A stretch of 64,000 nt of DNA from an uncultured Methylococcaceae bacterium (GCA_903873165.1 CAIQNQ010000103.1:8387-72386); one strand, 5' to 3'. Counted from the first letter of the stretch, positions 4,131-63,960 are shown. Notes: a model not told the origin generated them from the letters alone. Numbers and translations are program-made.

Positions 4131-4138
4131 GTCTGTAT

Positions 4139-7318: not shown

Positions 7319-7345
7319 TTACATGAAATATCATATAAATAGTCA

Positions 7346-48384: not shown

Positions 48385-48527
48385 GTTAAGTAAAGAAGTA
48401 AAATAATATTTTAACTCGATTGAAAGATACAACAAAATATTTAAACGCCCTTTAAAGGGCGTTTAATGTTTAATCTACGGTAATGAATTTAGATGTGTCT
48501 AGATAGATTAAGGTTTTATAAATAATC

Positions 48528-49280
48528 ATGAAAGAATTAAATTGCTTGGTATTAATCTTAATAATTAATATCAGTTCTCTAGTGCATGCAGACAACTTTC
48601 AATTGAAAAGTAATGAACAAAAGTCTAGCTATGCATTAGGTGTGGATTATATGAATGGTCTATATCAAGACAATCTAGCCTTGGATAATAGGGCTTTTTT
48701 GCAAGGCATAAAAGATGTGCAAGCGGGCTTGGGTTCTCGTCTTAACCCCGAAGAACAAAGACGAGCATTAAATTTTTTTATTGTAAAACGCCTTAAACAA
48801 AGACAGTTGCAAAGCGACGCTACTTTGGCTCAAGGTAAAACTTATTTGCTTGAAAATAAAAAGCATTCGGGTGTTAAAGAACAACCGAGTGGTCTTCAGT
48901 ATAAGATATTAAAAATGCCTAATAGTCAACAACAAGTCACTAGCTCAGATGGCGTTGCTATACGTTATCGACTATTTGATATCAAAGGTAAACAGTTAAT
49001 GGCATCACCTGAAGGTAATAGCCAAAAATTAGTGATAAACGCAATTTTTCCTGGTTTACAAGAAGCGTTATTGTTAATGAAAGTAGGTGAAAAAATTGAA
49101 GCAGTGATACCTCCTGAACTGGCTTTTGGGGTTAATGGTAGTCCAGATGGCTTAATTAAGCCTAATCAAACTCTAGTCTATGAGTTGGAGTTGGTAAGTG
49201 TTATTTCTGCGGAACAGGCAAAAGTTGAAATGGAAAAACCCACATTAGTGGGTGGCAAGCCAAATACTTTTGATCAGTAA
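48528..49280 (+). CDS. FKBP-type peptidyl-prolyl cis-trans isomerase (FkpA/Mip-like), periplasmic (copy 1)
   Basis: Signal peptide, an N-terminal dimerisation-type region (SYALGVDYMNGL) and a C-terminal FKBP domain (LVYELELVSV). Confidence 0.85.
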   Translation: MKELNCLVLILIINISSLVHADNFQLKSNEQKSSYALGVDYMNGLYQDNLALDNRAFLQGIKDVQAGLGSRLNPEEQRRALNFFIVKRLKQRQLQSDATLAQGKTYLLENKKHSGVKEQPSGLQYKILKMPNSQQQVTSSDGVAIRYRLFDIKGKQLMASPEGNSQKLVINAIFPGLQEALLLMKVGEKIEAVIPPELAFGVNGSPDGLIKPNQTLVYELELVSVISAEQAKVEMEKPTLVGGKPNTFDQ

Positions 49281-49324
49281 TCTATAATGATAAAGTGTTA
49301 TTATTTTTTAAAAAGCAACAAGAT

Positions 49325-49543
49325 ATGAAAGTTAAAATACTCATCATTCTATTATTCATTGGTTTTTTTCTTACAGGTTGCGCTGAAGTAAAACCTTGGC
49401 AGCGGGGTAATTTAGCTAAGTCCATCATGGCTAATGACCCATCTCCTTTACAATCTTCTTTTAGACAGCATAATTATTCCAGCCGAGAAGCGGCAGGTGC
49501 TACTAGTTCTGGAGCAACTGGTGGTGGTTGTGGCTGCAATTAA
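49325..49543 (+). CDS. DUF4266 family lipoprotein (copy 1)
   Basis: MKVKILIILLFIGFFLTGC lipobox, VKPWQRGNLAK, HNYSSREAA and a terminal GGGCGCN, which is the characteristic DUF4266 pattern. Confidence 0.8.
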   Translation: MKVKILIILLFIGFFLTGCAEVKPWQRGNLAKSIMANDPSPLQSSFRQHNYSSREAAGATSSGATGGGCGCN

Positions 49544-52343
49544 GTCAAAATCTAAATATGTCAAAAGTGCTACTTTACAAGCTTTATGCCTATCAGCATT
49601 GACATTGCCAGGCCTGTCCATTGCTGATAATGCTGCAGGTACTGATGCCAGTATGCATGGTAAATCAAATACCAATTCAGCAAGTGAGACACCTAAACAA
49701 AGTCTTAAGCAATCAGATGCTTTTGATGAAATTGATTACCAATATACTATTTATCAAGAGGGTAAGCGTGATACTTATGATACAGCGCCTTACACTATTG
49801 ATAATAACGGCATCATGACTTCAACTGGGCCTTATAAATACCAAACAAATTTACAACCTATCACTGTGGATAGTGAGCATGCCTCCAGTCGTTTTCGGTT
49901 TGGTGATAGAACACGCTTTGGGTTTAATTATGTACAGGATGTTTGGTCAGGTGCTACGCCTTGGTTTACTACGGCGGCGGGCAATTTTATGATTAAAGCA
50001 AATCCTCAATCTTTAGTGGGAGCTACTTATTGGGCTAATGGCGCGGGTGGTGGGCAGTTATTTGATGCAAAGAATAAGCCATTAACCTTGGCCGCTTTTG
50101 ATACGAATACGAGTACTATTCTCGCAACCAGTCCTTCTCGTATTCAACATGTATTAGGTTATGCCTCACCTGAAATGCGTAATCAGGCGGATTTCAAGTT
50201 AGGATATGACTTTGATCATGCTGCATTGGATATTGGTGGTGGATTATCTGTTGAACGTGATTATCTATCGCAATTTGGAAATTTGGCAGGGCGCATGGAC
50301 TTTAATCAAAAACGTACAACCTTAAATTTTGGGTTGAGTTATACCAATAGTGCGACACACGCTACGTCCACCACAAATTCTTCTAGTGGAACAGTATTAG
50401 ATCCCAGTGTTAATGTCAGTCAACACCAAGCTATGTCGATGTTACCTGGTGATGTTCCTGTTTATGAGCAAATTATTAAAGGTACGCGAGAGGATGGAAC
50501 TATTTCTTTAGCACTTAGCCAAGTGTTAACTAAAAACTCAGTGCTTACTAGTGGTGTTGGTTATACACGTAGTAGTGGTTATATGAGTAATCCTTATAAA
50601 GCAGTCATGGTTTATAATATGGATCCTAATTGGCGATCGGATGGCGGCTCTGGAGCCGTGCTGCCTGATACGGCTTTTCCGGGAGTGCAAATGGCAACGA
50701 GTGGTGGCCCAGTTGCGGAACAGCGGCCGCATTTACGAAATCAGTTAAACTGGGATATCTCTTATCGGCACTATATTGAACCTTTAAATGCTGCCGGCAA
50801 AGTTGGGTACAACTTTTTTCATGATGATTGGGGTATTAACGCACACAGTTTCGATGCTGAATGGCGACAAGCCTTAGGTGATAGTTGGACACTTACGCCG
50901 CATACCCGATATTATTCGCAATCATCGGCTAGTTTTTATACCCCCTACCTTTTATATACTAATGGGGATGTGAGTCCACAAGATCCTGGTTATTTAACAC
51001 CTCTTGCAAGTCAGCATTTTTCTTCTGACCAACGCTTATCATCTTATGGTGCCATTAGTGGAGGGATAACTTTGGGTAAGCAATTAGCGCAAGGTTTAAA
51101 CCTTGAGTTAGGTTACGAATATTATGTCCATAAAGGCGCACTGGCAATAAGTAGTGGCACAGGAGATTACGCTGATTATCATTATTATGCAGCAAGTGCC
51201 ACTATGCGAGTTAATCTCGATCAACTGTCGTTAAGAGGCGGCGCTTATGATAATTACGGACTCTCGGATTGGTTAGGTAATCTGTTTGGTGGAAACGATG
51301 TTGAATCTATTAGCGCTAACTCAAGTCATCAACATAATCATGGTCTAGCTCCTGCGGGGGTTATGTTCTCTCACATGCTTTCTCATGCAGGTGAAACTAT
51401 GGTGGGTTATCGTTATATGCGCGATACGCAGAGTGGTAATTATTTACAGGGCGCTCAAGCGTTAAGTTCGACTCAGCTTACTAATTCTCAGGCTTGTATG
51501 CCATTGGGTCAATGTACTATGCTTTCTAATAGCATGGACATGAATATGCACATGGTTGATTTGATGTATGCTCCCACGGATTGGCTAAATTTGATGTTGA
51601 TGCCGCAGTTTATGTCAATGTCGATGGAAATGAATATGCCAGTTGCTATGTCCATGACTGCAATGGGTGGCGGAATGAATATGCCGGCTTTACGTGATTT
51701 TCAAGGCAGTGGTGGATTTGGTGATACTGGGGCGTATGCTTTATTCAAGCTATGGGATGGTGATGGACAACATTTACATCTAACTCAAGGTATCAGTGCG
51801 CCGACGGGTGCAACGAATATTCGTCAGAGTTCTCCGGGTGGTCCAGAATATTATTATTCTTATGGCATGCAACTAGGTAGTGGTACTTGGGATTATAAGC
51901 CTAGTTTGACCTATACGGGAATTTTGAATGATTGGTTCTGGGGTGGGCAGGTGAGTGGTACCCATAGATTGGAAAATTTAAATAATCAAGGTTATAGGCA
52001 GGGTGATATTTTCCAGACCACGGCATGGGGTGGCTATAAATTGACGCCTTGGCTTAGCTCTACCATACGTGCGGTTTATACTGCACAAAGCAAAATGGTT
52101 GGCACTCATACAAATGTGAATACAGTTGCTGGAGTACCTATGTGGATGCCTGAAGACAATCCAAGTAATTATGGTGGCTTCTTTGTTGATGTCGGCTTCG
52201 GTGCGACAGTGAGTATGCCTTATGGCAAACTGGCTGGTCATTCTTTAGGGTTTGAATGGTTGCAACCTGTTAGCACTAATTTCCAAGGCTATCAGTTAGA
52301 TAGAGCAGGGGCTTTGTCTGCGACATGGAATTATAAGTTTTAG
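49530..52343 (+). CDS. DUF3570 domain protein fused to a C-terminal His/Met-rich beta-barrel-like domain (copy 1)
   Basis: DUF3570-like motifs are present (VQDVWSGATP, GYMSNPYKAV, EQRPHLRNQ, FHDDWGINAHSF, RYYSQSSASFY, SSDQRLSSYG). A roughly 390-aa extension follows, with a Met-rich tract and a terminal aromatic residue (..WNYKF). The GTG start at 49530 (VAAIKSK..) is chosen by analogy with the paralog start MAVIKTP. This gives the same 14-nt overlap with the DUF4266 gene. Confidence 0.7.
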   Translation: MAAIKSKSKYVKSATLQALCLSALTLPGLSIADNAAGTDASMHGKSNTNSASETPKQSLKQSDAFDEIDYQYTIYQEGKRDTYDTAPYTIDNNGIMTSTGPYKYQTNLQPITVDSEHASSRFRFGDRTRFGFNYVQDVWSGATPWFTTAAGNFMIKANPQSLVGATYWANGAGGGQLFDAKNKPLTLAAFDTNTSTILATSPSRIQHVLGYASPEMRNQADFKLGYDFDHAALDIGGGLSVERDYLSQFGNLAGRMDFNQKRTTLNFGLSYTNSATHATSTTNSSSGTVLDPSVNVSQHQAMSMLPGDVPVYEQIIKGTREDGTISLALSQVLTKNSVLTSGVGYTRSSGYMSNPYKAVMVYNMDPNWRSDGGSGAVLPDTAFPGVQMATSGGPVAEQRPHLRNQLNWDISYRHYIEPLNAAGKVGYNFFHDDWGINAHSFDAEWRQALGDSWTLTPHTRYYSQSSASFYTPYLLYTNGDVSPQDPGYLTPLASQHFSSDQRLSSYGAISGGITLGKQLAQGLNLELGYEYYVHKGALAISSGTGDYADYHYYAASATMRVNLDQLSLRGGAYDNYGLSDWLGNLFGGNDVESISANSSHQHNHGLAPAGVMFSHMLSHAGETMVGYRYMRDTQSGNYLQGAQALSSTQLTNSQACMPLGQCTMLSNSMDMNMHMVDLMYAPTDWLNLMLMPQFMSMSMEMNMPVAMSMTAMGGGMNMPALRDFQGSGGFGDTGAYALFKLWDGDGQHLHLTQGISAPTGATNIRQSSPGGPEYYYSYGMQLGSGTWDYKPSLTYTGILNDWFWGGQVSGTHRLENLNNQGYRQGDIFQTTAWGGYKLTPWLSSTIRAVYTAQSKMVGTHTNVNTVAGVPMWMPEDNPSNYGGFFVDVGFGATVSMPYGKLAGHSLGFEWLQPVSTNFQGYQLDRAGALSATWNYKF

Positions 52344-52388
52344 CCTTCGCCTATAATAGAACAAGGCTTAATTGCCTCACTAGACACT

Positions 52389-53294
52389 ATGAAAGCCAAG
52401 AAGCTTAAGCAATTTAACTATCACTTTAATGCTATGGGCACTCAGTGTGAAATCCAGCTTTTTAGTGAGCACCCCGGCAGAGCCAATCGACTCGGTAAAC
52501 GCATTATTGCGGATGTCGAGCGCTTGGAGGCAAAATATTCGCGTTATCGGCCAGAAAGCCAGTTAAGCCAAATTAATAATGTGGCCTTATTGGGCGGTAG
52601 TATTGCGGTGGATGATGAGACAGCCGTTTTGCTTAATTATGCTGAAACTTGTTATCAACAAAGTGATGGCTTATTTGATATTACCTCTGGCGTTTTAAGG
52701 GGCGCATGGCGATTTCATGCTCAGCGCTTACCGACTCAAGCAGATATAGATCCCTTATTAGAAAAGGTGGGTTGGCATAAGCTAAATTGGCACATGCCTA
52801 GGCTAGAGTTTACTCAGCCCGGCATGGAATTGGATTTAGGAGGGGTGGTAAAAGAATATGCTGTCGATAGAGCTGCCACTTTATGTAGAGAAGTCGGTAT
52901 CAAAAGTGGATTGATAAATTTAGGGGGTGATATCAGGTTAGTAGGCCCCAGAGGTGACGGTGAGCCTTGGATAGTTGGGATTGAGCATCCTCGGAAACCG
53001 AGTTCTGTGTTGATTAATTTGTCCGTAACGCGTGGCGCATTAGCAAGCAGTGGGGATTATCAACGCTGTATTGTTATAGATGGCATTCGCTATGCGCATA
53101 TTCTTAACCCCAAAACGGGTTGGCCAGTTAAGCATTTAGCGGCTGTTAGTGTTATGAGTGATTTTTGCGTCGTAGCCGGTAGCGCCTCAACCATTGCCAT
53201 GCTTAAAGAGGAGCAAGGCCCTGAGTGGTTGAGGCAATTAGGTTTACCGCACCTGTGGGTCGATATTAATGGTAAACAGGGCGGTGATTTATAA
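52389..53294 (+). CDS. apbE: FAD:protein FMN transferase (ApbE family)
   Basis: FNAMGTQCEI, GLFDITSG, LDLGGVVKEYAVDRA, INLGGDI, SSGDYQRC...HILNPKTGWP and AGSASTIAM motifs. No N-terminal signal peptide is visible. Confidence 0.88.
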   Translation: MKAKKLKQFNYHFNAMGTQCEIQLFSEHPGRANRLGKRIIADVERLEAKYSRYRPESQLSQINNVALLGGSIAVDDETAVLLNYAETCYQQSDGLFDITSGVLRGAWRFHAQRLPTQADIDPLLEKVGWHKLNWHMPRLEFTQPGMELDLGGVVKEYAVDRAATLCREVGIKSGLINLGGDIRLVGPRGDGEPWIVGIEHPRKPSSVLINLSVTRGALASSGDYQRCIVIDGIRYAHILNPKTGWPVKHLAAVSVMSDFCVVAGSASTIAMLKEEQGPEWLRQLGLPHLWVDINGKQGGDL

Positions 53295-53334: not shown

Positions 53335-54093
53335 TTAGGGCTGTTTCCAGCTTGACGTGGGTTTTAGATCGCTAGTTTGTGAGGCGATTTTTTCCACAAT
53401 ACTCATCAGTTCAACCTCATAAATCAGGACTTCATTCGGCGCTAAATGGCCGGGGGCACCCGTTTCACCATAGGCTAGATTGCTTGGTACAAACAATTGC
53501 CATTTACTGCCTTCGGTCATTAACAACATAGCCTCCTTCCAGCCAGGCACCAAGCTGGCAATCTGCACCTCGGGTACTTTTGCAGAGGTTAGCGTATTGG
53601 TTAATTCTTTGCCATCCAGTTGCGTGATTTTAAAGCGCACCTGGGCTGATTCTTTTAGTGTCGGTTGACGCGATGATTTGCCGGGAATTAGCACCTTGTA
53701 CTGTAAGCCACTGGCGGTCGTAATAACGCCTGGTTTTTGCTTGTTCTCTGCTAAAAATGCCTCACCTTTAGCCAGATTTAAGGCACCCATTTTTTCATTG
53801 TACTTTACGTGTTGTACAAAAACCCAGTCCTGGCCTTTTAGCAATTCGTTCGGATTAAGGCGTAACGGATGCTTGTTTAGTACATCATTCATACCTAACA
53901 CAAACAAACTCTGATCCAGTGGAATCTCGCTTTTTTGCAAGTTTTGCAAATAATTAACCCCTTGCGCATAGCTGGATTTTTGCTGATCTGATTGCAGGAT
54001 TGGTTCGGTGATAACCGATTTGGTAGGTGGCGTCGCTGCGCAACCTGTTAAAAAACTGAAACACAGGGCTGTGAAATAAGTTTTAGCTTTCAT
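53335..54093 (-). CDS. FKBP-type peptidyl-prolyl isomerase, lipoprotein (copy 2)
   Basis: Lipobox FLTGC, SYAQGVNYLQNL and a C-terminal FKBP domain (LIYEVELMSI). Confidence 0.85.
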   Translation of the reverse strand: MKAKTYFTALCFSFLTGCAATPPTKSVITEPILQSDQQKSSYAQGVNYLQNLQKSEIPLDQSLFVLGMNDVLNKHPLRLNPNELLKGQDWVFVQHVKYNEKMGALNLAKGEAFLAENKQKPGVITTASGLQYKVLIPGKSSRQPTLKESAQVRFKITQLDGKELTNTLTSAKVPEVQIASLVPGWKEAMLLMTEGSKWQLFVPSNLAYGETGAPGHLAPNEVLIYEVELMSIVEKIASQTSDLKPTSSWKQP

Positions 54094-54139
54094 GGATCCT
54101 CTTAAAAATAAAAATTTAAATAAAAATTAACAACCGTTA

Positions 54140-56884
54140 TCAAAACCCAACGCCCCACGTTGCAGTTAATGCGCCACTGCGTTCTAATTGATAGCCGTTA
54201 TAGTCGGTGTGTACCGGTTGCAGCCATTCAAATTTGAGGGTATTGCCGGCAAAAGTACCTGTGGGTACTGTCACATTAATGCCCAAACCGACATCCACAA
54301 ATTGACCGCCGTAGTTACTGGTAAATTGGCTAGGCATTCGATAGTTGCCGAATTGGTTATAGGGGATTGTACTGCCATCAGTCATGACTACGGGCTTGAG
54401 TACCCCATGAATACTGTCCTGCCAGGTATAGATGCCACGTACGTTAGCAGACAACCAGTTATTCCATTGATAACCACCCCATATGCTGCTCTGGAAGATA
54501 TCACCTAAGGCATAACCGGATTCATTGTGTTTATCTAAGCGTTTGGTACCGGTAGCCTGAGCGCCCCAGATAATGGCTTCCATTGCGCCACTGTAGGTCA
54601 AGCTGGGTTTAAGATCCCAGGTGCCACTGCCCAGTTGCATGCTGTAATCGAGTGGAATGATTGCAGCGTTAGAAGTGTTCTTTTTCTGCATCAGTGAGAC
54701 ATTGCCGGTGGGCGCGGTGCCGCCTAGGCTTAGGGTGAGCTGATGACCGTGTTGTTCAAATAGTTTGATCAGCGCATACAAACCGGTATCGCCAATGCCG
54801 CCGGATTGTTGATTCATTACGGGCATATCGAGGCCCATGCCAGTAGTGCTGCGTTTCATCTCTGACTGGTTCATTTTCATATCCATATCCGTCCATTGCG
54901 GCATTAGCATTAGTGTTACCCGGTCAGTGGCGGCCACCATCAGCTCCAGCATGTGCATATTCATAGTCATAGTGCTGGGTAACATCATGCAGGTTTGATC
55001 AGCGCAACCCTGTGCAATGGCCGTATCGTTACTGGCTGTCGACGTGCCAGACAGCATAGAGCCAGATTGTTCGTTACGCATGTACCGGTACCCCGCCATC
55101 ATATCGCCGGCATTATCCAGCGCATGATCAAACATGATACCGGCTGGCGTAATGGCATGGCTGGCATGGTGATGAGCTGTGCTGCTGCTATCGTTGCTAC
55201 CTCCATTAAAACGCAAAGCACCCAGATTGATTTTAAGTGCGGCATTGGCCGTCCAATAATCAAAATTATTGAACGCCTGTTCACTACCGCTACCACCACC
55301 CAACTTTAAGGCACTCTGATGCGTGTAATATTCAAACCCAGCTTGCAGACTGATGCCTTTGGCGAATTGTTTTGCTACGATGACTCCACCACTCAGAGCA
55401 CCAAAACCTGCCAAACGCTGGTCGCTGGAATAATAATCCGGTAGGGCTTTGGAATAGATGACATTACCTGAAGCATCATACCCTGACATGGTTGTCGTAA
55501 AATACGGGGCATAAAAATCCGCTGCCGATTGCGAGTAATAACGTACTTTGGGGGTGATTGTCCAGCCGGCACCTACCGGTTGCGCCCAATCGGCCTCAAA
55601 CGTATGAGAATTAATGCCCCAATCATCATGTGCCCCCGTGTAACGAGTATGCAGCGCAGCGTTGAGCGGCTCAATATAATAATGGTAGCCCAGATTGCCG
55701 TTGACCTGATTGCGCTCATGCGGGCGAGCCTCCCATTGACCTGCTCCGCTGTACATTAATGGTTGGCTTGGATCCTGACCGGGGTTGGCGTGAAACACAT
55801 ACACCGCCTTGTAAGGATTACTTAAGTAGCCAGTGCTATGGGTAAAACTCGTTCCCACATCCATTACGGCGTTTTGGGTCAGAATCTGGGTTAGGCCCAA
55901 ATTACCAGCGACATCTTGACGAGTACCGGTCAGGGTAGTTGTTTGTGCACCAATCATCCCTCTGTTAGGAAGGCTTGTTGTTACCTGATGATAAGTACCT
56001 TCGGTCTGAGGACTGTAGAAGTTACGCGTTGTAGTATTGCCATTGACGGTGCTGCCGTTAAAGGAATAGGGGCCACCAGCCATGTAAGTCACAGCAAATG
56101 GATCCAGGGTGGCGTGGGTATAACTGTTGGTATAGCTTACGCCGGCATTGAGGCTGGTGCGTTTTTGGTTAAAATCCAGGCGCAAACCCAGATTACCGAA
56201 GCGCGAGTCATAATCATTTTCTACCGAATAGCCACCGCCGCCGTTAACGCTGGCGTTATCCCAATCATAATCCAGTTTAAAGTCGCTTTGTTTGCGGGTT
56301 TCTGGCGAGGCGCCGACCAATACATTAGTCACCTGGTTGACTATAGCACCGGGTGTAAACGTACTACTCCCCGTATTAGGATCATAATGATAGTTTTGGC
56401 TATGAATATTATTCTGTTTGTCTATATAGAAAGGATTAGAATTTGTGTTACGTAACAGAGGTGAAGCACCAGTAATGGCATTAGTGACAGGGTTCGATAC
56501 CGGACTCGCTGCATTCGACACGACCGGCGCAGAGGCAATCGGTGTGGCTCCGGCCCAGGTATCCTGAGTGTAATTAAACGCAAACTTGACCCGGTCAGTC
56601 AGGTGAACACGAGAACTACCATGTAAGCCATCTACTTCGATCGGGTTTAAATAATTGGGTGTTTTACTGGACGTGAATGTGCCAGTAGGATTTACATTGG
56701 TATAAATATTGCGGTAACCTTCCTGGTAATGGCTGTACTGAAAGTCCACTTCATCTTCATCGGCTGCGTAAGCTGGGGCTTGCATTAGGCCGGGCAGGAT
56801 TAAGGCCGCTGCGGTTAATGCTTGTAAATTAGACTTGCCACGAGAGGGTGCTTTGGGTTTTTCGGGGGTTTTAATTACAGCCAC
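54140..56884 (-). CDS. DUF3570 domain protein fused to a C-terminal His/Met-rich beta-barrel-like domain (copy 2)
   Basis: 914 aa and collinear with copy 1, sharing FNYTQDTWAGATP, GYLSNPYKAV, EARPHERNQ, AHDDWGINSHTF, RYYSQSAADFY and SSDQRLAGFG. The tracts HHHASHAITPAGIMF and MMLPSTMTMNMHMLELM...MLMPQWTDMDMKM follow. It ends ..WGVGF. Confidence 0.75.
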   Translation of the reverse strand: MAVIKTPEKPKAPSRGKSNLQALTAAALILPGLMQAPAYAADEDEVDFQYSHYQEGYRNIYTNVNPTGTFTSSKTPNYLNPIEVDGLHGSSRVHLTDRVKFAFNYTQDTWAGATPIASAPVVSNAASPVSNPVTNAITGASPLLRNTNSNPFYIDKQNNIHSQNYHYDPNTGSSTFTPGAIVNQVTNVLVGASPETRKQSDFKLDYDWDNASVNGGGGYSVENDYDSRFGNLGLRLDFNQKRTSLNAGVSYTNSYTHATLDPFAVTYMAGGPYSFNGSTVNGNTTTRNFYSPQTEGTYHQVTTSLPNRGMIGAQTTTLTGTRQDVAGNLGLTQILTQNAVMDVGTSFTHSTGYLSNPYKAVYVFHANPGQDPSQPLMYSGAGQWEARPHERNQVNGNLGYHYYIEPLNAALHTRYTGAHDDWGINSHTFEADWAQPVGAGWTITPKVRYYSQSAADFYAPYFTTTMSGYDASGNVIYSKALPDYYSSDQRLAGFGALSGGVIVAKQFAKGISLQAGFEYYTHQSALKLGGGSGSEQAFNNFDYWTANAALKINLGALRFNGGSNDSSSTAHHHASHAITPAGIMFDHALDNAGDMMAGYRYMRNEQSGSMLSGTSTASNDTAIAQGCADQTCMMLPSTMTMNMHMLELMVAATDRVTLMLMPQWTDMDMKMNQSEMKRSTTGMGLDMPVMNQQSGGIGDTGLYALIKLFEQHGHQLTLSLGGTAPTGNVSLMQKKNTSNAAIIPLDYSMQLGSGTWDLKPSLTYSGAMEAIIWGAQATGTKRLDKHNESGYALGDIFQSSIWGGYQWNNWLSANVRGIYTWQDSIHGVLKPVVMTDGSTIPYNQFGNYRMPSQFTSNYGGQFVDVGLGINVTVPTGTFAGNTLKFEWLQPVHTDYNGYQLERSGALTATWGVGF

Positions 56885-57092
56885 AACCGCCTCCTTGTGA
56901 GTTATTTGCCGCTGAAGCTGCCTCGCGGCTACCGTAGTTATGCTGACTCAACCCGCTTTGCAAGGGATAAGGATCCAGTGCCATGTGTGGTTTGGCCAGG
57001 TTGCCGCGCTCCCAGGGCTGAACGCTGGTGCAGCCAGTGAGTACTAGCAGTACGTAAACCAGTAATAGGTGATGTAAAACTATTTTGTCCAT
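56871..57092 (-). CDS. DUF4266 family lipoprotein (copy 2)
   Basis: MDKIVLHHLLLVYVLLVLTGC lipobox, VQPWERGNLAK, HNYGSREAA and a terminal GGGCGCN. It overlaps the DUF3570 start by 14 nt. Confidence 0.8.
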   Translation of the reverse strand: MDKIVLHHLLLVYVLLVLTGCTSVQPWERGNLAKPHMALDPYPLQSGLSQHNYGSREAASAANNSQGGGCGCN

Positions 57093-57257
57093 GTATTCCT
57101 TTGAGTAAAGCGTTGCAATCTGCGATAACAATTAAGCCAAAAACTTTTTTAGAAAAAGCCGGTAACTCGTAGGAGCTACCGACTTTTTGGTAATGCAATA
57201 ATACCTACCGTTGTTTAACTTAAGCAGGCCTGTGTTATCGTTGTGATGACTATGGAT

Positions 57258-57971
57258 TTATTGGTCAATGAATTGATTCCAATCAGCTGCTGTAGTACCG
57301 GAACCATTGGGTACATCAATAAAGCTGTTGGGGTTAGCGCCAGTATTCACCCCAGTACCTGTGTGAATACCCACAGAAGAATCGGGCGCTGGGAGTGCGC
57401 CTACCGCCACGTTTTCGCAGTGAAAAGTGGCTAGATAATTAGTCGCCACACCCGGAGTATGAGAAACGGCGACGGTGTAAGTGCCGTTAGCATCTGCGCC
57501 TAAATTATCTTTTACCTGTGCCCAGGCGCCAGCATTGGTTCCGTCGCCCCATAAATTAGGAATAACAGTGCCATCGACCAAAATCCCACCGCTGTTAACC
57601 GGAACCCCTGTTGTTGAGGATACGCCAGCTAAAGGGGTATTTCCGAATGGAGAGCCGACGGATACTTTTACTTTAGAGGTGGCGCCACTAAGCGCAGTCG
57701 GAGTGCAAGTTGCATCGAGTGTTGAACAGCGATGATACGCCCTGGCCACAAAGCGTTTAGCAGCGGCTGTCGATTCGCCGCCGGCTGCCGCTGCACCTGC
57801 TGCGTTCCACGTAAAGCAACTGGTGTGATACACGTCAATCTCAGAGGCTGTGCCAGCATCCGCCGCCGAGAGTGTTCCAGGTGCTGTATGCGCCATACTT
57901 ACATTAGACAGGCTTATTGCACATAGCATAGCAGTTGATAATAATGTTAGTTTTAGAGTATTATTTTTCAT
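57258..57971 (-). CDS. secreted protein of unknown family, predicted to mature with N-terminal His (copy 2)
   Basis: The signal peptide ...LSNVSMA is followed by HTAPG. It shares the conserved islands TSCFTWN, VSHTP, FHC, GIHTG and a terminal FIDQ with copy 1. Confidence 0.65.
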   Translation of the reverse strand: MKNNTLKLTLLSTAMLCAISLSNVSMAHTAPGTLSAADAGTASEIDVYHTSCFTWNAAGAAAAGGESTAAAKRFVARAYHRCSTLDATCTPTALSGATSKVKVSVGSPFGNTPLAGVSSTTGVPVNSGGILVDGTVIPNLWGDGTNAGAWAQVKDNLGADANGTYTVAVSHTPGVATNYLATFHCENVAVGALPAPDSSVGIHTGTGVNTGANPNSFIDVPNGSGTTAADWNQFIDQ

Positions 57972-57992
57972 AGGAATCTCAATTTAATGGAT

Positions 57993-58031
57993 TAAAAAAA
58001 TGCCGACGCGCTATTTCGAGTTGCGCTCGGC
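57993..58031 (-). terminator. intrinsic-terminator-like hairpin between HEAT2 and the His1-protein gene (minus strand)
   Basis: The minus strand reads GCCGAGCGC..loop..GCGCGTCGGC followed by CATTTTTTT. The T-tail ends about 22 nt before the ATG at 57971. Confidence 0.5.
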
Positions 58032-58118
58032 CGGTACACTTATCACCATTGATAGGTGTACTTGCTTTTGCTGTCGGCGTACGGACTAGGTACGTCGACT
58101 ACAAAATCTTTGCTAGGT

Positions 58119-59009
58119 TTATTGTTGTCCATTACGTTCGCGGTAACGAAGCAACATACCTAATTTATCAGCCGCGTAATTGCTGACACTTTTATCACTA
58201 TCATTCTGGGCCTGTTCCAGCAGATCCTGATTATTGGCTGCACTTTCAATTGCCGCCATGCGCACGCTACTGTCGGTATCCTGTAAACCACGACTAATAA
58301 TTTCCTTAGCATTGTCTTTGTCTAATGCCGCCATTGATGACAAGGCCTGACTGCGGATGGTGGGGTTTTTATCCCCCATCGCCTCGGTAAGTGCTGCACG
58401 CACATTTGGATCATTAATATTGGCGCCTGCCGTTAAATAACTGAGGGCATTTTTACGTTCTTCTGCGGTTTTGGCTTCTTTAAGACCGGTTAATAGGGCA
58501 TCGGAGTATTCTTTATTGGGTGGTTCCGGTTTTCGTTGGGAATTATCGATACCAGATTCAGTTTTTATGGATACGGGTGTGGATTCAATCGTTAAGGTCT
58601 GACAACTACCAACACTGGAACCTAGTAGCCAAAATTCTGCGGGTTTGCCGGGTTCCGGTTTGTTTGCTACCAAGCCAATTTGCTTGGCCAGCAAGCAATC
58701 CATTAATTGCCAAACGTTTGTGCCAGCGCAAGTCGCCGTTACCGGCGCTTCTGGTAATGCGGAGTAATGAAAAATTGCACCAGTTTTACTGGCAATTTCA
58801 TTAAGGATTTCCCCCAGGGGCATTTGCCTTACTTCTAAACTGATCGGGCTGTCTGCTTGTGTCGATAACACAAGTTGAATGCTGGGTTGTATCGTCGGCG
58901 TTACCACGGGTTTATCTTTTACCGTTTCAGCAAGCAAGGGATTGCTAGACAAAAAGCTCCCAACCATTGAAACGACCAAGCTTATATATTGCGTATATTT
59001 AATGATCAA
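58119..59009 (-). CDS. secreted HEAT-repeat protein (copy 2)
   Basis: TTG start with a signal-like N-terminus. The C-terminal half carries HEAT-like repeats (MGDKNPTIRSQALSSM, LQDTDSSVRMAAIES, DSDKSVSNYAADKL). Confidence 0.65.
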   Translation of the reverse strand: MIIKYTQYISLVVSMVGSFLSSNPLLAETVKDKPVVTPTIQPSIQLVLSTQADSPISLEVRQMPLGEILNEIASKTGAIFHYSALPEAPVTATCAGTNVWQLMDCLLAKQIGLVANKPEPGKPAEFWLLGSSVGSCQTLTIESTPVSIKTESGIDNSQRKPEPPNKEYSDALLTGLKEAKTAEERKNALSYLTAGANINDPNVRAALTEAMGDKNPTIRSQALSSMAALDKDNAKEIISRGLQDTDSSVRMAAIESAANNQDLLEQAQNDSDKSVSNYAADKLGMLLRYRERNGQQ

Positions 59010-59103
59010 GCGTCTATAACCTCTAGTTTAGAAATAGCAGGGCTTAAATCACATCCCCACGTAGCCCGTGGGGATGAGAAAAAGAGTTAAAAGGTATAGA
59101 GAG

Positions 59104-59934
59104 TTAAAAAGCCCGCACAGCCCGGACAGGAGCATAGGCATTTTTAGGAGCGTATCCAGCGTCACCGTAGTAGAAGTCGTAAGTCCAGGCCCCCAAGTCG
59201 TCGCTTTCTGAAGAACTCCAGAAGGAAGTACTGTCTGATTTAGTAATACCTCCTACCCCATGATCCGCTAAATTCTTATACATTAGAGTAAGTTCGTTAA
59301 TTGATGGTAAATACCAATCACTTTTATTGGCTGTTAAATAAAGATCAGCTTGCTTGGCTGCACCCGTTGAGCAAGCTCCAAGCATGGCTGTGGTGTTCGC
59401 CTTACCAGCACCTAAAGCTCTAGCAGACCAAGCCGCTACCTGTGGAATTGAGGTGTTGGTAATATTACACCACTGGGTAACTGCTATATCAGTCGGAGCG
59501 GCTTCCAGATAATTAAAGCCTGGATATTCATCGTTATAATCAACAAAGAATATCCAGCCCCCACCGGGACCTACCTCGCCAACTTTACAAGCCACTTTGC
59601 CACTGGCACCACAAGTCATAGAATAGGCAAATGAACTTCCAGAGCCTGAAGAACCTGCAGGCCCCATAGCCCCTGTAGCCCCCATAGCCCCTGTGTCACC
59701 TTTTGCGCCAGTGGCCCCCGTCATTCCTATCGGTCCCTGAACTCCTGGCTCACCTTTAGCTCCTTTTGGGCCTCTTGGTCCAATAGGTCCTCTTGGACCT
59801 CTAGTTCCAGCGGACGATGCCGTTGCTAGCCCTTGAACGCCCACAGCGTCTGTTGCATCAGCAACACTCCATAATGATGACAATATCAGTGCTGACATAA
59901 TCATTGGTATTTTTAATAACGATAATATTTTCAT
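59104..59934 (-). CDS. secreted collagen-like triple-helix repeat protein with DUF1566 (Lcl-type) C-terminal domain
   Basis: Signal peptide, then about 19 uninterrupted G-X-Y triplets ([40 protein letters not shown]...). The C-terminal domain contains [14 protein letters not shown], which is typical of DUF1566. Confidence 0.75.
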
Positions 59935-60248: not shown

Positions 60249-60264
60249 TGTGTCATATAACACA
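60249..60264. promoter_or_regulatory. palindromic site B (TGTGTCAT ATAACACA)
   Basis: One mismatch to the consensus. The centre is 30 bp from site A. Confidence 0.65.
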
Positions 60265-60267
60265 AGT

Positions 60268-60933
60268 TTAGCCATCCAGAATATCTATAACTGTTTCGCA
60301 GCTAATTTCGTTTTCAGTGCTATTGCCTATAAAATAGGCCAATCTTTCAATAGCCTGCCAATAAATAGCTGTGTTGATAAATTCAAAAGCTTCCCTAAGT
60401 AGTCGCGTTATGTTTTCTGAATGACGCGACTTATCCGCAATAAAATCATCGAGATACTCCTGAATATTTTCTAGATCAGAACTACCGCCATATTGGTGTA
60501 AGGTATTTATCTCGATATTTTGTAAATCAAAACGCTGCCCACTTTTAAGGGCTAGATATTTGGCTTCTGCTAATGGCCCCGCTAGTAGATTGACAATATC
60601 TGCCTCAAATGCGCTTTTAATACTATCTTTTTCGCTATTACTATAAAACATACTGCTTTCGATGATATTAAACGGTAGGTTTTGTATTAAGCGGCCTTCG
60701 ATCACTTGGGCAATATAATGTTTATCCCTAGGATCAATTTGATTTGAATTCGATAGTATGGATGATGAATTGCTTCTCAGATTTATCTGAAAATAAACGG
60801 GGGGTAAGTTTTTTTGTTGATTATTAAGATGTATGGCGGCCGCATGACCCGCTTCATGAAAAGCAGTTTTTAATAATAAGTCTTTATCAAAAAGGCTGTG
60901 GGTATGGTAGTTAATTGGGTGATTTCGTTTCAT
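60268..60933 (-). CDS. stand-alone M41 (FtsH-peptidase-like) HEAGH zinc metalloprotease domain protein
   Basis: 221 aa. AFHEAGHAAAIHL resembles the FtsH HEAGHA motif, and YGGSSDLENIQEY resembles the FtsH G.S.D...A segment. There is no AAA domain, TM segment or signal peptide. Confidence 0.55.
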   Translation of the reverse strand: MKRNHPINYHTHSLFDKDLLLKTAFHEAGHAAAIHLNNQQKNLPPVYFQINLRSNSSSILSNSNQIDPRDKHYIAQVIEGRLIQNLPFNIIESSMFYSNSEKDSIKSAFEADIVNLLAGPLAEAKYLALKSGQRFDLQNIEINTLHQYGGSSDLENIQEYLDDFIADKSRHSENITRLLREAFEFINTAIYWQAIERLAYFIGNSTENEISCETVIDILDG

Positions 60934-60951: not shown

Positions 60952-60978
60952 AAAAAAAAGCGGTCATAATGACCGCTT
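60952..60978 (-). terminator. intrinsic-terminator-like hairpin in the 5' leader of the M41-like gene (minus strand)
   Basis: 9-bp perfect stem AAGCGGTCA / TGACCGCTT with a 3-nt loop. A T8 run follows on the minus strand and ends about 18 nt before the ATG at 60933. Confidence 0.5.
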
Positions 60979-61079: not shown

Positions 61080-61093
61080 TTGTCGCGCGACAA
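61080..61093. promoter_or_regulatory. 14-bp perfect palindrome TTGTCGCGCGACAA, flanked by GATATTTGG direct repeats
   Basis: Read directly from the sequence. A related half-site, AATGTCGCGA, lies at 61094-61103. GATATTTGG occurs at about 61059 and 61102. Confidence 0.4.
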
Positions 61094-61107
61094 AATGTCG
61101 CGATATT

Positions 61108-61202: not shown

Positions 61203-61218
61203 TGTGTCATAAGACACA
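61203..61218. promoter_or_regulatory. palindromic site C (TGTGTCAT AAGACACA)
   Basis: One mismatch to the consensus. Confidence 0.65.
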
Positions 61219-61248: not shown

Positions 61249-61302
61249 TAGTTCGTTAAGGCTGGGTAGCAGTCAATAGCACCCTATTTAAATAAGAATG
61301 AT

Positions 61303-61331
61303 TTGCATTTGCATATTTCTAAGGTTAGAAT
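61303..61331 (+). promoter_or_regulatory. candidate sigma70 promoter (TTGCAT-17 nt-TAGAAT)
   Basis: Hexamers with a 17-nt spacer, about 30 nt upstream of the ATG at 61364. Confidence 0.35.
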
Positions 61332-61363: not shown

Positions 61364-62884
61364 ATGAAAGATCATAAAGTTTTAAGAAATAGTTTGGGCA
61401 TTATGGCAGTGACGGTGTTTAGTCTGTCAGCCAATGCTTTAGATAAGCCACAGACGATGGACGATATGTGGAAAATTATCCAAGCACAACAACAGCAACT
61501 TAACGACATGAAGTCCCGTTTAGAAAAAGCGGAGAGTAAATCGACGGTTGCCAGCGTTCAACCAGCCAATCAGTCAGTTTCTGATAATAAACCGCCACTA
61601 GAGAATAAAGATTCAACGAGTCTTGCCACCAATTCTCAGGGCACTCAGCCACAAACTACTAATAATCAGGTAAAGAAATTAGAGCGTAAAACCGATATTC
61701 TTAGTCAAGAAGTTGAGAAGTTGCGCACAAACCTAGCCATTCCAGAAGAAAAACAACTTAAAAGCGCTTATGGTATGGGGCCTGCTGCTTCTAAGGTATA
61801 TCAGGTGGGTAAAGGTTTATCGATTGGGGGTTATGGGGAAGGTTTTTATCAAAATATTGTTGGCGATAAAGGTACAGAAAAATCGAAAGCGGATATGGAA
61901 AGAATGGTGATGTACGTTGGTTATAAGTTTACCGATAGTATTATCATGAATAGTGAGTTGGAGTTTGAACATGGCACTACGGGTGAGGGCGCTGAAGCAA
62001 AAGGTGAAGTCTCTGCAGAATTTGCTTATTTAGATTTTTTATTCAATCCTAAAGTGAATGTGCGCACTGGCTTAGTATTAATGCCGATGGGGCTGATTAA
62101 TAGAATGCACGAGCCATTATTTTATTTTGGTAATCATCGTCCGGTGGTTGAGCAAACTATTATCCCAACTACGTGGCGAGAAATGGGTGTCGGCCTGTTT
62201 GGTGCTATCACGCCTAATCTGACGTATACCACTTATGCCGTTAATGGCTTAAATGCCCGTGGTTTTAGCTCTACGGGTGTTCGTGAGGGTTCGGGTGGTG
62301 GTAGTCAAGCCTTAGCACAAGATTTGGGTTATGTGGCTCGGTTAGACTATACGCCTAATGCTTTACCTGGCTTAACCATAGGTGGTTCGGGTTACGTTAG
62401 TAATTCTGGTCAAGATTTGACTTATAATGGTCAAAAGGCAAATGTATTAACCCAAATATATGAGTCGCATTTACAATGGAAATATTATGGTCTTGAATTT
62501 AGAGCGTTAGGATCATGGGGGTTGATTAATAATGCGGGCTTACTGAGTGCTAACGTCGGCGCAAACCCTATTACCGGTGAAAATGTAATTGGCTCACAAA
62601 ATTATGGTTGGTACACTGAAGCGGGTTATGACGTTTTACCATTGATGTTTAAAGATACTCCGCAATATTTAGCACCTTTTGTGCGTTATGAAAAATTAAA
62701 TACCATCGCTAAGGCCCCATTGGGTTATAGTGCTGACCCTACTAAGGATCAGGAAGTATTTCAGGTGGGTTTACAGTATAAGCCTATCCCACAAGTGGTA
62801 CTTAAAGCGGATTATAGAAATTTTGTGGCAAAACAAGGCAGTTTGCCAGATGATTTCAATTTAGGTTTTGGTTTTATATTTTAA
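61364..62884 (+). CDS. outer-membrane porin-like beta-barrel with N-terminal coiled-coil
   Basis: Signal peptide, a Q-rich coiled-coil (MWKIIQAQQQQLNDMKSRLEKAE, KKLERKTDILSQEVEKLR), and then alternating beta-strand-type sequence ending ...NLGFGFIF with a terminal Phe. Confidence 0.65.
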   Translation: MKDHKVLRNSLGIMAVTVFSLSANALDKPQTMDDMWKIIQAQQQQLNDMKSRLEKAESKSTVASVQPANQSVSDNKPPLENKDSTSLATNSQGTQPQTTNNQVKKLERKTDILSQEVEKLRTNLAIPEEKQLKSAYGMGPAASKVYQVGKGLSIGGYGEGFYQNIVGDKGTEKSKADMERMVMYVGYKFTDSIIMNSELEFEHGTTGEGAEAKGEVSAEFAYLDFLFNPKVNVRTGLVLMPMGLINRMHEPLFYFGNHRPVVEQTIIPTTWREMGVGLFGAITPNLTYTTYAVNGLNARGFSSTGVREGSGGGSQALAQDLGYVARLDYTPNALPGLTIGGSGYVSNSGQDLTYNGQKANVLTQIYESHLQWKYYGLEFRALGSWGLINNAGLLSANVGANPITGENVIGSQNYGWYTEAGYDVLPLMFKDTPQYLAPFVRYEKLNTIAKAPLGYSADPTKDQEVFQVGLQYKPIPQVVLKADYRNFVAKQGSLPDDFNLGFGFIF

Positions 62885-62914
62885 TAGGTTACGGCTCTTT
62901 AGTGGAACTACACG

Positions 62915-63457
62915 ATGAAAATAGTTAAGTTAATTTTATTAAGCGGCATATTGCTGATGGTTACACCCAGTTTTGCGACTATTTATTACAGCAAAAATGA
63001 AGCGATGGAATTGGCCTTCGGTGCAGGTATCCCTATTGAGCCGTTATCTTTATTTCCCGATGAAGCACAGATCGCTAAAATAGAACAAGTCGCTAAGCAA
63101 AAATTAGAGTCCGGCTTATTCACTTTTTATGTCGGTAAAAATCAAGATAAAATATTGGGCTATGCAGCCATAGAAACCAGTACAGTTAGGACTAAACCAG
63201 AAACCTTGTTGATTGTATTAACCCCAGAGGGTGAGTTACGTAATATTTATACTTTAGCTTTTCATGAGCCGAATGAATATGAGCCGCCGCAAGCTTGGTA
63301 TGAAAGGCTCTATAATAAGCCGCTTGCTAACATGGATTTTAATAAAGGTGTGGATGGCATCAGTGGCGCGACCTTAAGTACGCGTACTGCGTTAAGTAGT
63401 ATTCGTAAAGTAATGATGATTTATCAAGTTATGATAAAAAATAAGGACTCTGAATAA
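62915..63457 (+). CDS. FMN-binding domain protein (predicted ApbE substrate), exported
   Basis: Signal/anchor MKIVKLILLSGILLMVTPSFA. The C-terminal VDGISGATLSTRTALSSIRKV matches the FMN_bind flavinylation motif D-x-x-S-G-A-T. Confidence 0.75.
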   Translation: MKIVKLILLSGILLMVTPSFATIYYSKNEAMELAFGAGIPIEPLSLFPDEAQIAKIEQVAKQKLESGLFTFYVGKNQDKILGYAAIETSTVRTKPETLLIVLTPEGELRNIYTLAFHEPNEYEPPQAWYERLYNKPLANMDFNKGVDGISGATLSTRTALSSIRKVMMIYQVMIKNKDSE

Positions 63458-63960
63458 TGCGGTATTTTGTAACAGGTGAGCAACAACGCAAAGCATTACT
63501 TAACGCGTTGGTGTTGATGTTTTTAGGCTATATTGCTTTACTATGGTTGAGTAATGCATTGATGTATTTTCATCATATGGCTTTAACGCCCAGTTCAGTA
63601 ATCGCCTATTATTTGGGTTCAGAAGAACAATTTACCCAGCCTAGAAGCTATCAAGGCATGTTAGAAGTGTCACATTTTCATTTGTTTTCTATGGGCATGT
63701 TGATAGTGACGTTAACCCATCTAATGTTAATGACAGATTTTTCGGTATATCTAAAGATTTGGCTCAGTGCATTAACTTATCTTTCTGCTATAGCAGATGA
63801 GGCAGCCGGTTGGTTGGTAAGGTTTGTACATCCATTGTTTGCCTATTTTAAAATTGCGGCCTTTATTACCTTAGAGTGTTCATTGTTGGCATTGTTAGTC
63901 GTAGTGATTTGGGCGTTGTTAAGGGCTAGAACACAAATGCAGCCTACCCAAACAGATTAA
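63457..63960 (+). CDS. 4-TM membrane protein with conserved-looking His residues, unknown family
   Basis: 167 aa with four hydrophobic segments. His residues lie at or within the helices (YFHHM, SHFHLF, LTHLM, FVHP). Its ATG overlaps the stop of the FMN-binding gene. Confidence 0.55.
   Translation: MRYFVTGEQQRKALLNALVLMFLGYIALLWLSNALMYFHHMALTPSSVIAYYLGSEEQFTQPRSYQGMLEVSHFHLFSMGMLIVTLTHLMLMTDFSVYLKIWLSALTYLSAIADEAAGWLVRFVHPLFAYFKIAAFITLECSLLALLVVVIWALLRARTQMQPTQTD

Follow-up and report, generated by a model that had tools for sequence, protein, structure and literature searches.

A porin, a flavoprotein and a four-transmembrane protein encoded in one methanotroph operon as a candidate Fur-regulated module for reductive iron acquisition

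The 64,000-nucleotide (nt) stretch of DNA considered here (GCA_903873165.1 CAIQNQ010000103.1:8387-72386; hereinafter the window, with residue numbers referring to the proteins that it encodes) comes from an uncultured Methylococcaceae bacterium and carries three genes on the + strand, whose products are an outer-membrane β-barrel, an exported protein with an FMN_bind domain and a small inner-membrane protein with four transmembrane (TM) segments. The open reading frames (ORFs) lie exactly as an initial annotation, made from the sequence alone, had placed them: 61364-62884 (506 aa), 62915-63457 (180 aa) and 63457-63960 (167 aa). The barrel gene is separated from the FMN_bind gene by 30 nt (62885-62914), while the stop codon of the latter shares one base with the start codon of the 4-TM gene (TAATG at 63455-63459), an overlap by which the 4-TM gene is predicted to be translationally coupled to FMN_bind. 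The trio and the elements predicted in front of it are as follows, with AlphaFold2 abbreviated to AF2:

61288..61306, + strand: Fur-box-like operator, TTAAATAAGAATGATTTGC, with 1 mismatch to AAATRANAATCATTTG and 14/19 of the idealised family palindrome GCAAATGATAATCATTTGC
61302..61331, + strand: predicted sigma-70 promoter (consensus scan 9/12; conserved in the closest relative, locus L004)
61364..62884, + strand: outer-membrane 16-strand porin-fold barrel, 506 aa (ORF, AF2, Foldseek, homologues)
62915..63457, + strand: exported FMN_bind protein, 180 aa, DGISGAT(153)LS (ORF, profile, motif)
63457..63960, + strand: inner-membrane 4-TM protein, 167 aa, PF27139 (Aq_1264_TM) (Pfam hits of relatives, AF2 model)

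The nearest relatives of all three proteins are from Methylococcales methanotrophs (Methylobacter, Methylovulum, Crenothrix and Methyloglobulus), and the window is thus that of a freshwater methanotroph; an origin from Legionella, to which an adjoining ORF for an Lcl-like collagen protein had seemed to point, was rejected on this ground. The stretch is also present in DNA runs from lake and pond metagenomes.

We surveyed 83 Methylococcales loci, the genome-locus listing comprising the best 80 of 482, all of them from this order. In 82 of the 83, the exception being a truncated contig, the 4-TM gene is immediately preceded by the FMN_bind gene; the gap between the two is 10 nt or less in all 82, and their codons overlap in 59. 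Among the 66 loci in which the available DNA extends far enough, 61 have the barrel gene upstream in the same orientation. Cultured carriers of the trio include Methylomicrobium lacus (L057), Methylovulum miyakonense HT12 (L064) and Methyloglobulus morosus KoM1 (L056). Since this order and strand are conserved across dozens of genomes, the association of the three genes is more than chance. No other gene family is common to more than 17 of the 83 loci, most of the rest being spurious antisense ORFs, and thus the flanks of the trio are variable. Insertions between the barrel and FMN_bind genes are of two kinds: two DUF3782 genes in Methylovulum (L001), and, in 12 loci, a di-haem cytochrome c peroxidase (CCP_MauG and Cytochrom_C; L007 at 6111-7340, L011, L012, L013, L021, L023, L027, L032, L042, L047, L079 and L082).

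The barrel protein has a signal peptide (MKDHKVLRNSLGIMAVTVFSLSANA) and a C-terminal phenylalanine. Its AF2 model begins with two periplasmic helices (32-58 and 97-125), joined by a Q/S/T-rich linker, and continues with about 16-18 strands. The model is of moderate confidence overall (mean predicted local distance difference test, pLDDT, 62), with values of 80-93 in the C-terminal half and low ones in the N-terminal half of the barrel. Foldseek aligned it with the general trimeric porins OmpE36, OmpC, OmpF and OmpK36 (E 1.7e-12, probability 1.00, target-normalized template-modelling score, TMt, 0.65), recovering the 16-strand β-barrel that is typical of this class at only 12–16% sequence identity. 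The same 16-strand fold is found in DcaP (6eus, E 4.9e-10), which further resembles the window protein in possessing an N-terminal periplasmic coiled coil. Accordingly, the barrel and its coiled coil stand as first described, although the latter, having a precedent, is less unusual than had been claimed. What sets the protein apart from both the general porins and DcaP is a family-specific series of invariant residues, namely N196, E198, E200, E202 and H203 (N-x-E-x-E-x-E-H, 196-203) along with H249-E250-P251, and the lack of a match to the Pfam porin families. Indeed, no Pfam domain at all was found in the barrel or its 120 listed relatives, no NCBIfam model matched the barrel, and a search of PDB sequences with it returned nothing meaningful; every source labels the listed relatives hypothetical, with the family comprising at least 4,044 relatives. 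Barrels encoded upstream of FMN_bind in distant loci are true homologues, as they retain 35–48% identity to the window protein (E 2e-70 to 2e-138).

In the second protein, the N-terminus MKIVKLILLSGILLMVTPSFA, with the boundary before the T of ...TPSFA/TIYY, was judged by inspection to be an export signal, and the flavinylation motif VDGISGATLS occupies residues 147-156 with T153 as the acceptor. This agrees with the earlier description of an exported 180-aa protein ending in an FMN_bind domain with this motif. The domain scores 20.4 bits against Pfam PF04205 (E 8.6e-4), just under the gathering score of 22. However, PF04205 is precomputed in many relatives at 71–83% identity, and the distant orthologues are annotated as FMN_bind. 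Eleven of these orthologues, the most divergent at 28% identity, all have G151 and T153, and nine have [S/T]GAT, in line with the [S/T]GA[S/T] motif of ApbE substrates; this supports the view of the protein as one of the ApbE-substrate type. A search of PDB sequences with it yielded nothing meaningful. Many of its relatives bear the label "RnfG subunit" from the Joint Genome Institute (JGI). We rejected this identity, as the NCBIfam RnfG model gives 16 bits against a cut-off of 205; the label is a domain-level carry-over. NqrC and RnfG of the Na+-NQR and RNF complexes do share with the window protein an FMN_bind domain with an SGAT acceptor threonine, but no other NQR or RNF subunit is encoded near the trio.

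The third protein belongs to the family that Pfam names Aq_1264_TM (PF27139) after Aquifex aq_1264, the match being precomputed in all 120 listed relatives at 79–98% identity; our local Pfam and NCBIfam scans gave no match, with the Pfam copy used containing no PF27139 model. Searching 1.84 billion cluster representatives at E 1e-3 or better, we delineated a family of 425 clusters (50%-identity representatives), and 51 diverse members of it displayed no recurring Pfam match. The AF2 model is very confident (pLDDT 93.2; predicted template-modelling score, pTM, 0.84), with helices at 8-41, 45-53, 65-91, 97-123 and 128-160, four of which are long. Weak MAPEG-like overlaps of this model (query-normalized score, TMq, about 0.46; E above 0.6) were set aside as uninformative. 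The initial annotation had drawn attention to histidines at or in four helices, and the motifs in question (YFHHM, SHFHLF, LTHLM and FVHP) are all present. However, conservation across the family bears out only a part of them: in 62 full-length representatives the conserved residues are Y52, G54, E70 (58/60), H73 (52/60), H75 (59/62), H88 (59/62), K100 and K132, whereas H39, H40 and H125 are variable. The conserved histidines are thus H73, H75 and H88 alone, all of which are situated on TM2.

For distant lineages, we examined a sample of 12 single-protein look-ups with representatives at 27–52% identity, several of them on short contigs. Their gene contexts are given below, where TM denotes Aq_1264_TM and double colons denote fusions:

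L084: barrel - FMN_bind - TM::ApbE
L085: barrel - FMN_bind - tandem TM; convergent ApbE
L086: ApbE - FMN_bind - TM::DtxR-C::FeoA - Fur
L087/L088: barrel - FMN_bind - tandem TM::ApbE; convergent HMA/YHS ATPase
L089/L090: FTR1/FtrD-like - barrel - FMN_bind - TM - ApbE - FeS_assembly_P
L091/L092: barrel - FMN_bind - TM; convergent FeoA - FeoB - ApbE operon
L093: TM - TM - FeoB_associated
L094: Fur - PccH - DUF2325 - barrel - FMN_bind - tandem TM
L096/L097: barrel - FMN_bind - TM; convergent thioredoxin-like gene (thioredoxin/AhpC-type)

The order of the trio is kept in L084, L085, L087, L089, L091, L094 and L096. ApbE is adjacent or fused in six of the nine informative contexts (adjacent in L085, L086, L089 and L091), and fusions of Aq_1264_TM to ApbE are represented by four independent 50%-identity representatives, which together substantiate the suspected tie of the 4-TM family to flavinylation. 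Meheust et al. (2021) recognize a flavinylation-associated cluster by a gene of the ApbE, FMN_bind, DUF3570 or DUF2271 families, an export signal on one or more of these proteins and a transmembrane electron-transfer component; the present clusters conform to this, with an exported FMN_bind protein coupled to a membrane protein and ApbE fused or adjacent elsewhere. From these gene contexts we define a module of barrel, FMN_bind and Aq_1264_TM proteins, with ApbE as a frequent fourth member, the commonest neighbours of which are genes for iron transport or iron regulators.

The fusions also orient the 4-TM protein. In the ApbE fusions, a strongly basic linker and a fifth hydrophobic segment intervene between TM4 and the ApbE domain, whereas other members carry C-terminal cytoplasmic domains, either PilZ or DtxR-C (Fe_dep_repr_C) plus FeoA. 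Hence, both termini are cytoplasmic, and E70, H73 and H75 are at the periplasmic end of TM2, with H88 near its cytoplasmic end. In tandem 8-TM forms (n=16), the N-terminal halves retain E70 (14/16) and H73 (16/16) and never H75 or H88, while the C-terminal halves retain H75, H88, Y51 and G54 (16/16 each), Y52 (15/16) and R122 (12/16), with H73 in only 3/16. As the halves split the conserved residues in a complementary fashion, a dimer or pseudo-dimer is the functional unit, implying, as far as residue conservation can tell, one essential interface site to which one domain contributes E70 and H73 and its partner H75 and H88. Such a site would be compatible with a non-haem metal, with a quinone pocket or with one interface haem accompanied by a second centre. 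On the other hand, the small di-haem protein first envisaged, with histidines on each of four helices, has to be abandoned. CybB/b561-type di-haem cytochromes b are likewise four-TM proteins of similar size, but they require four histidines, two on each of two helices, as opposed to three on TM2 alone, and our searches found no match of the 4-TM protein to them in sequence or fold. The 13-residue spacing of H75 and H88 on one helix is reminiscent of di-haem helices.

Two further contexts of the family deserve mention. L093 (62-1187) contains a pair of neighbouring single-domain Aq_1264_TM genes, the products of which possibly form a heterodimer intermediate between the homodimeric and tandem forms, and, after the pair, a small FeoB_associated gene. 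In L098 (138-1398), a fusion of Aq_1264_TM to PilZ is followed by a gene for a secreted protein, of which 143 aa are encoded before the end of the contig; with a CXXCH motif (CLSCH) close to the N-terminus, this protein may be a Cyc2-like porin-cytochrome.

The make-up of the interface site raises the alternative that the 4-TM protein is a Fe2+ permease and not an electron conduit, with a path leading from a periplasm-facing 2-His-1-carboxylate site (E70/H73 of one domain and H75 of the other) past H88 to the cytoplasm, and with the flavoprotein being fed by some other periplasmic donor. E70, which is nearly invariant and segregates with H73 in the tandem forms, would not be needed by a haem site, and the fused metal-sensing Fe_dep_repr_C and FeoA domains are typical of gated transporters. 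A parallel 4+4 TM dimer is an architecture common among small transporters, and the FeoB_associated gene adjoins a pair of family members in L093. However, FeoAB and FTR1 beside the module in L091 and L089 suggest that the module itself is without a permease, and no similarity to known metal-transporter families was found. Moreover, a permease would leave the flavoprotein with no electron source encoded in the operon, whereas the ApbE fusions and the translational coupling tie the 4-TM protein to the flavoprotein and not to transport. We consider this reading unlikely, although we rank it above the other alternatives discussed below, which follow in the order of an iron-sparing electron chain, a flavinylation biogenesis factor and a copper system shared with the DUF3570 proteins.

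The ApbE fusions, in which a periplasmic ApbE domain would be attached to the TM module, also invite the view that the 4-TM protein is a biogenesis factor outside the redox chain, which exports or presents flavin adenine dinucleotide (FAD) to ApbE or anchors ApbE together with its substrate. In Listeria, extracytosolic ApbE-like enzymes are known to be served by dedicated flavin trafficking (PMC9973259). Nevertheless, this is distinctly improbable: 82 of the 83 Methylococcales loci couple the 4-TM gene to FMN_bind and have no ApbE nearby, NqrC, RnfG and DUF3570 are flavinylated without any Aq_1264_TM protein (PMC8238504), and the PilZ and DtxR-C/FeoA fusions suggest an activity that is regulated.

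The window does encode an ApbE (52389-53294, 301 aa) about 8 kb from the trio, which had been taken for an orphan that the trio would supply with a substrate. This gene starts 45 nt after a DUF3570 gene, DUF3570a (profile E 4e-97), the product of which has the motifs WSGATPW (SGAT at 172) and PTGATN (TGAT at 791). As DUF3570 has been experimentally shown to be flavinylated by ApbE (Meheust et al. 2021, PMC8238504), the window ApbE adjoins a proven substrate and is no orphan. Alongside a DUF4266 protein ending in GCGCN (a C-terminal CXC), these genes constitute a cluster of the thioredoxin-like/DUF4266/DUF3570/ApbE type described in the same study. The window ApbE has no signal peptide, lipobox or Tat motif, and its ORF is not extendable upstream; the module-linked ApbEs of L085, L089 (with a Tat signal) and L091 all have export signals. 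Neither ApbE nor DUF3570 is encoded within ±8 kb of the trio in any of the 82 other Methylococcales loci, and even L004 displays only loose synteny, with a DUF4266 gene 8 kb downstream of the trio. Thus, the proposed co-conservation of the trio with ApbE and DUF3570, the lack of which the initial annotation had itself named as grounds for refutation, does not hold within the order. The nearby ApbE is a member of the DUF3570 cluster and most likely no partner of the trio; the flavin of the FMN_bind protein most likely comes from an exported ApbE whose gene lies at another place in the genome.

The DUF3570 genes of the window belong to two paralogous, convergent clusters. The first (46760-53294, + strand) codes for a HEAT-repeat protein, a secreted protein of ~238 aa, an FKBP, DUF3570a and ApbE, and the second (53335-59934, - strand) for a collagen/Lcl_C protein, a HEAT-repeat protein, a secreted protein of ~237 aa, DUF4266, DUF3570b and an FKBP. 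Both DUF3570 proteins are about twice the length of the DUF3570 domain owing to C-terminal extensions of ~400 aa, rich in methionine (29 and 26) and histidine (13 and 12), the composition of which suggests metal binding.

A 16-bp palindrome, TGTGTCATWWGACACA, had been advanced as a further link between these clusters and the trio. Its copies are real: they occur upstream of both DUF3570 clusters (46583-46598, 46615-46630 and, with one mismatch, 60249-60264) and 160 nt upstream of the barrel gene (61203-61218). Of the surveyed loci, L004 alone contains it as well (2788, 10326, 10356 and 11514). The corresponding copy of L004 is ~300 nt upstream of the homologue of p221, a neighbouring gene of the window, and is separated from the barrel by 3.1 kb and two genes (for a Fur-family regulator and a TonB-dependent receptor). 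Because this copy stays with p221, the palindrome is a feature of the DUF3570/Lcl/p221 neighbourhood, not of the promoter of the trio, for which we discarded it as an operator. It is likely the site of a lineage-specific regulator of the DUF3570/Lcl/p221 clusters; its outline, TGTG-N8-CACA, resembles CRP/FNR-type sites and is confined to the promoter regions of that neighbourhood. The p221 gene itself (60268-60933, - strand) has copies of TGTGTCATWWGACACA on both sides and codes for a 221-aa protein with a zinc-protease-like HEAGH motif and no Pfam family. Two GC-rich palindromes unique in the window, TTGTCGCGCGACAA and AATGTCGCGATATT, are adjacent at 61080-61107 between p221 and the barrel promoter, and a terminator-like hairpin lies at 60958-60978 on the - strand.

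These observations bear on the initial reading as a whole, in which the trio, with a di-haem 4-TM protein, served as the redox arm of an envelope system for copper or another metal formed with the DUF3570 proteins and the supposedly orphan ApbE under shared palindromes. To its credit are the ApbE at a distance of 8 kb, the palindrome in front of both DUF3570 clusters and the barrel, the Met/His-rich tails of the DUF3570 proteins and the HMA/YHS P-type ATPase beside one distant module. Against these stand an ApbE without an export signal that adjoins its proven substrate, the absence of ApbE and DUF3570 around the trio in the 82 other loci, a palindrome that stays with p221 in L004 and is missing from every other locus, a conserved histidine pattern that is not that of a four-His di-haem bundle and a regulatory and genomic context pointing to iron. 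The neighbourhood survey largely refutes this reading, which we deem highly improbable. What survives is the notion of metal reduction before uptake, insofar as the metal is iron: FeoAB, FTR1 and Fur genes, the DtxR-C/FeoA fusion and Fur boxes all speak for it, whereas copper has in its favour the single HMA/YHS ATPase of one distant locus.

The regulatory evidence for iron comes from the promoter of the trio. In the window, a predicted sigma-70 promoter combines a -35 element, TTTGCA at 61302, with an 18-nt spacer and a -10 element, TAGAAT, ending at 61331, and the Fur-box-like operator (61288-61306) overlaps the -35; this placement of a predicted box over a predicted promoter is, in silico, that of a Fur regulon member. 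The block is nearly identical in L004. Across the Methylococcales, the barrel gene is repeatedly preceded, at a distance of 60-90 nt, by a palindrome, GCAAATGA.AATCATTTGC, the core of which, AATGATAATCATT, is the central 13 bp of the classical (E. coli) Fur box. A scan of 933 kb of Methylococcales loci gave 52 matches at ≥15/19; 46 of them, from 45 of 70 loci, are no more than 200 nt ahead of the barrel gene. Three or four distant loci have Fur boxes as well, with matches to the delta-proteobacterial consensus of 17/17 at -41 in L087 and 16/17 at -36 in L085, an overlapping array in L091, and a 15/19 box upstream of the operon led by pccH in L094. A precedent exists in the predicted Fur-regulated porin "psp" of Geobacter metallireducens and Desulfuromonas, which Rodionov et al. 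(2004) suggested to function in iron transport, noting homologues only in Aquifex aeolicus and uncultured bacteria (PMC545781). Like the barrel of the trio, psp is a predicted porin preceded by Fur boxes and, going by this published description, it is probably of the same family. Unlike the present analysis, that study does not mention the FMN_bind and 4-TM partners (PMC545781).

Beside the promoter, L004 has (3165-5794) a divergent gene for a Fur-family regulator (34 bits to PF01475) and one for a TonB-dependent receptor directly upstream of the trio, both of which are absent from the window. Weak additional matches to the Fur motif occur in the window at 9943, 44846 and 56203 (inside DUF3570b). 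The first (9943-9961, 15/19) is at the 5′ end of a gene for an NADPH-dependent FMN reductase/flavodoxin-like protein (FMN_red, 9438-9962, - strand), which may be an iron-sparing flavoprotein, unless the match has arisen by chance.

The Fur boxes conserved in front of the trio and the Feo, FTR1 and Fur genes flanking the module in other phyla form the basis on which we interpret it in terms of iron acquisition. Specifically, building on the computed anatomy of the trio, its co-conservation, its associations with ApbE and iron genes and the predicted Fur-type operator, we propose, as an evenly balanced judgment, that the trio is a Fur-repressed operon for an envelope-spanning reductive iron-acquisition module. 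The enzymatic steps and the cofactor of the 4-TM protein are what we infer beyond this. When iron is scarce, Fur would leave the promoter, and Fe(III), probably in the form of small chelates, would reach the periplasm through the porin. T153 would receive covalent flavin mononucleotide (FMN) from an ApbE whose gene is located elsewhere, and the flavoprotein would then reduce Fe(III) to Fe(II). Docked onto the 4-TM dimer, the flavoprotein would be supplied by it with electrons from the quinol pool or the cytoplasm. They would pass through the interfacial His/Glu site, to which one subunit contributes E70 and H73 and its partner H75 and H88; haem b, a non-haem metal or a bound quinone may serve as the cofactor. 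Finally, Fe(II) would enter the cell via FeoB or an FTR1-type permease encoded elsewhere.

Control by Fur would also suit a different device, an iron-sparing periplasmic electron chain. Under iron limitation, the covalent flavoprotein would here take over from iron-rich c-type cytochromes in donating electrons to periplasmic enzymes, of which cytochrome c peroxidase is an example; the 4-TM protein would reduce it with electrons from quinol, and the porin would be incidental or admit the substrate. Fur control is typical of such switches, flavinylated proteins and cytochromes have been noted to be functionally redundant (PMC8238504), a thioredoxin/AhpC-type gene is convergent to the module in L096, and the CCP_MauG peroxidase sits between the barrel and FMN_bind genes in 12 loci. 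However, the peroxidase is limited to these 12 of the 83 loci, and a peroxidase within an iron-uptake operon has a parallel in EfeB of E. coli. Further, metal uptake is what the Feo, FTR1 and DtxR/FeoA contexts suggest, as does the strict co-conservation of the porin. We hence view an iron-sparing chain as improbable.

Several observations weigh against the iron-acquisition proposal itself. The Fur box of the window is a weak copy (14/19), and the window has no canonical iron gene with which the motif could be calibrated. Neither ApbE nor a Fe(II) permease is encoded within ±8 kb of the trio in the Methylococcales loci, and the peroxidase inserts could point to a different electron acceptor. 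The sole RNA evidence is a single 186-nt contig (63100-63285) from one metatranscriptome run, which lies inside the FMN_bind gene. As for the proposed electron conduit, three histidines on a single helix do not by themselves provide two bis-His haems, and a transmembrane wire of two haems is unsupported, since the tandem forms keep one set of residues; E70, H73 and H75 resemble a 2-His-1-carboxylate metal site no less than a set of haem ligands. The 4-TM protein shows no sequence similarity to the cytochrome b, PepSY, MsrQ or FTR1 families. Its profile found nothing closer among PDB sequences than an unrelated protein at E 0.084, and Foldseek returned no significant relative of its fold, the best hits being generic helix bundles (E 0.64). 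All three families are experimentally uncharacterized; a literature search found no paper naming Aq_1264 or PF27139, and nothing specific on iron limitation in methanotrophs that names this operon.

The iron-acquisition proposal nonetheless finds close analogues among known flavinylated systems, some of them Fur-regulated, that have been proposed as assimilatory iron reductases, for example those with PepSY-like/VciB and MsrQ-like/VIT1 proteins (PMC8238504). The PepSY-like/DUF2271/ApbE clusters and VciB of Vibrio cholerae share with the family of the trio a small TM protein, an exported ApbE substrate, ApbE, Fur regulation and iron-transporter neighbours, as well as the proposed role in periplasmic Fe(III) reduction for uptake (PMC8238504). 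They differ in having a 3-TM protein in place of the dimeric 4-TM Aq_1264_TM, DUF2271 in place of FMN_bind and a TonB-dependent receptor in place of the porin, and there is no sequence similarity between the two. The MsrQ-like/FMN_bind/ApbE systems with VIT1 resemble the trio in joining FMN_bind to a membrane electron-transfer protein and an iron transporter (PMC8238504), but MsrQ-like proteins have six TM segments, two bis-His haem sites and often an NAD-binding domain, as against four TM segments, three conserved histidines on one helix and no cytoplasmic redox domain in the membrane protein of the trio. The Listeria locus (PplA, EetA/EetB, FmnB, Ndh2 and DmkA) similarly combines an extracytoplasmic flavinylated FMN_bind protein and small membrane proteins without a recognized cofactor with ferric iron as an acceptor (PMC8238504). 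In contrast to the trio, it is Gram-positive, with a lipoprotein containing two FMN_bind domains, a dedicated NADH dehydrogenase, demethylmenaquinone synthesis and no porin, and no homology to Aq_1264_TM was detected in it.

Five classes of transmembrane partners have been catalogued for flavinylated systems (PMC8238504), and Aq_1264_TM is none of these. We tentatively advance, as somewhat less probable than not, the broader hypothesis that it represents a sixth such class for ApbE-flavinylated proteins, a dimer or pseudo-dimer with an asymmetric His3/Glu interface site, which together with a Fur-regulated porin and an FMN_bind flavoprotein forms a reductive iron-uptake pathway of many phyla requiring neither a siderophore nor a TonB-dependent receptor. 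To flavinylation-based extracytoplasmic electron transfer, a route of iron assimilation proposed to be widespread but with only those five TM partners on record, the module adds a candidate composed of three uncharacterized families: a porin without a Pfam entry, an FMN_bind subfamily and a TM family with a Pfam entry but no literature. Its anatomy predicts control by iron and Fur, flavinylation of T153 and a dimer-interface site of E70, H73, H75 and H88. The analysis also corrects two annotations, the "RnfG" label on the relatives of the FMN_bind protein and the assignment of the nearby ApbE, which passes to the DUF3570 cluster. If the hypothesis is true, the module would provide methanotrophs at oxic-anoxic interfaces, with their iron-rich metabolism, with a siderophore-independent source of iron.

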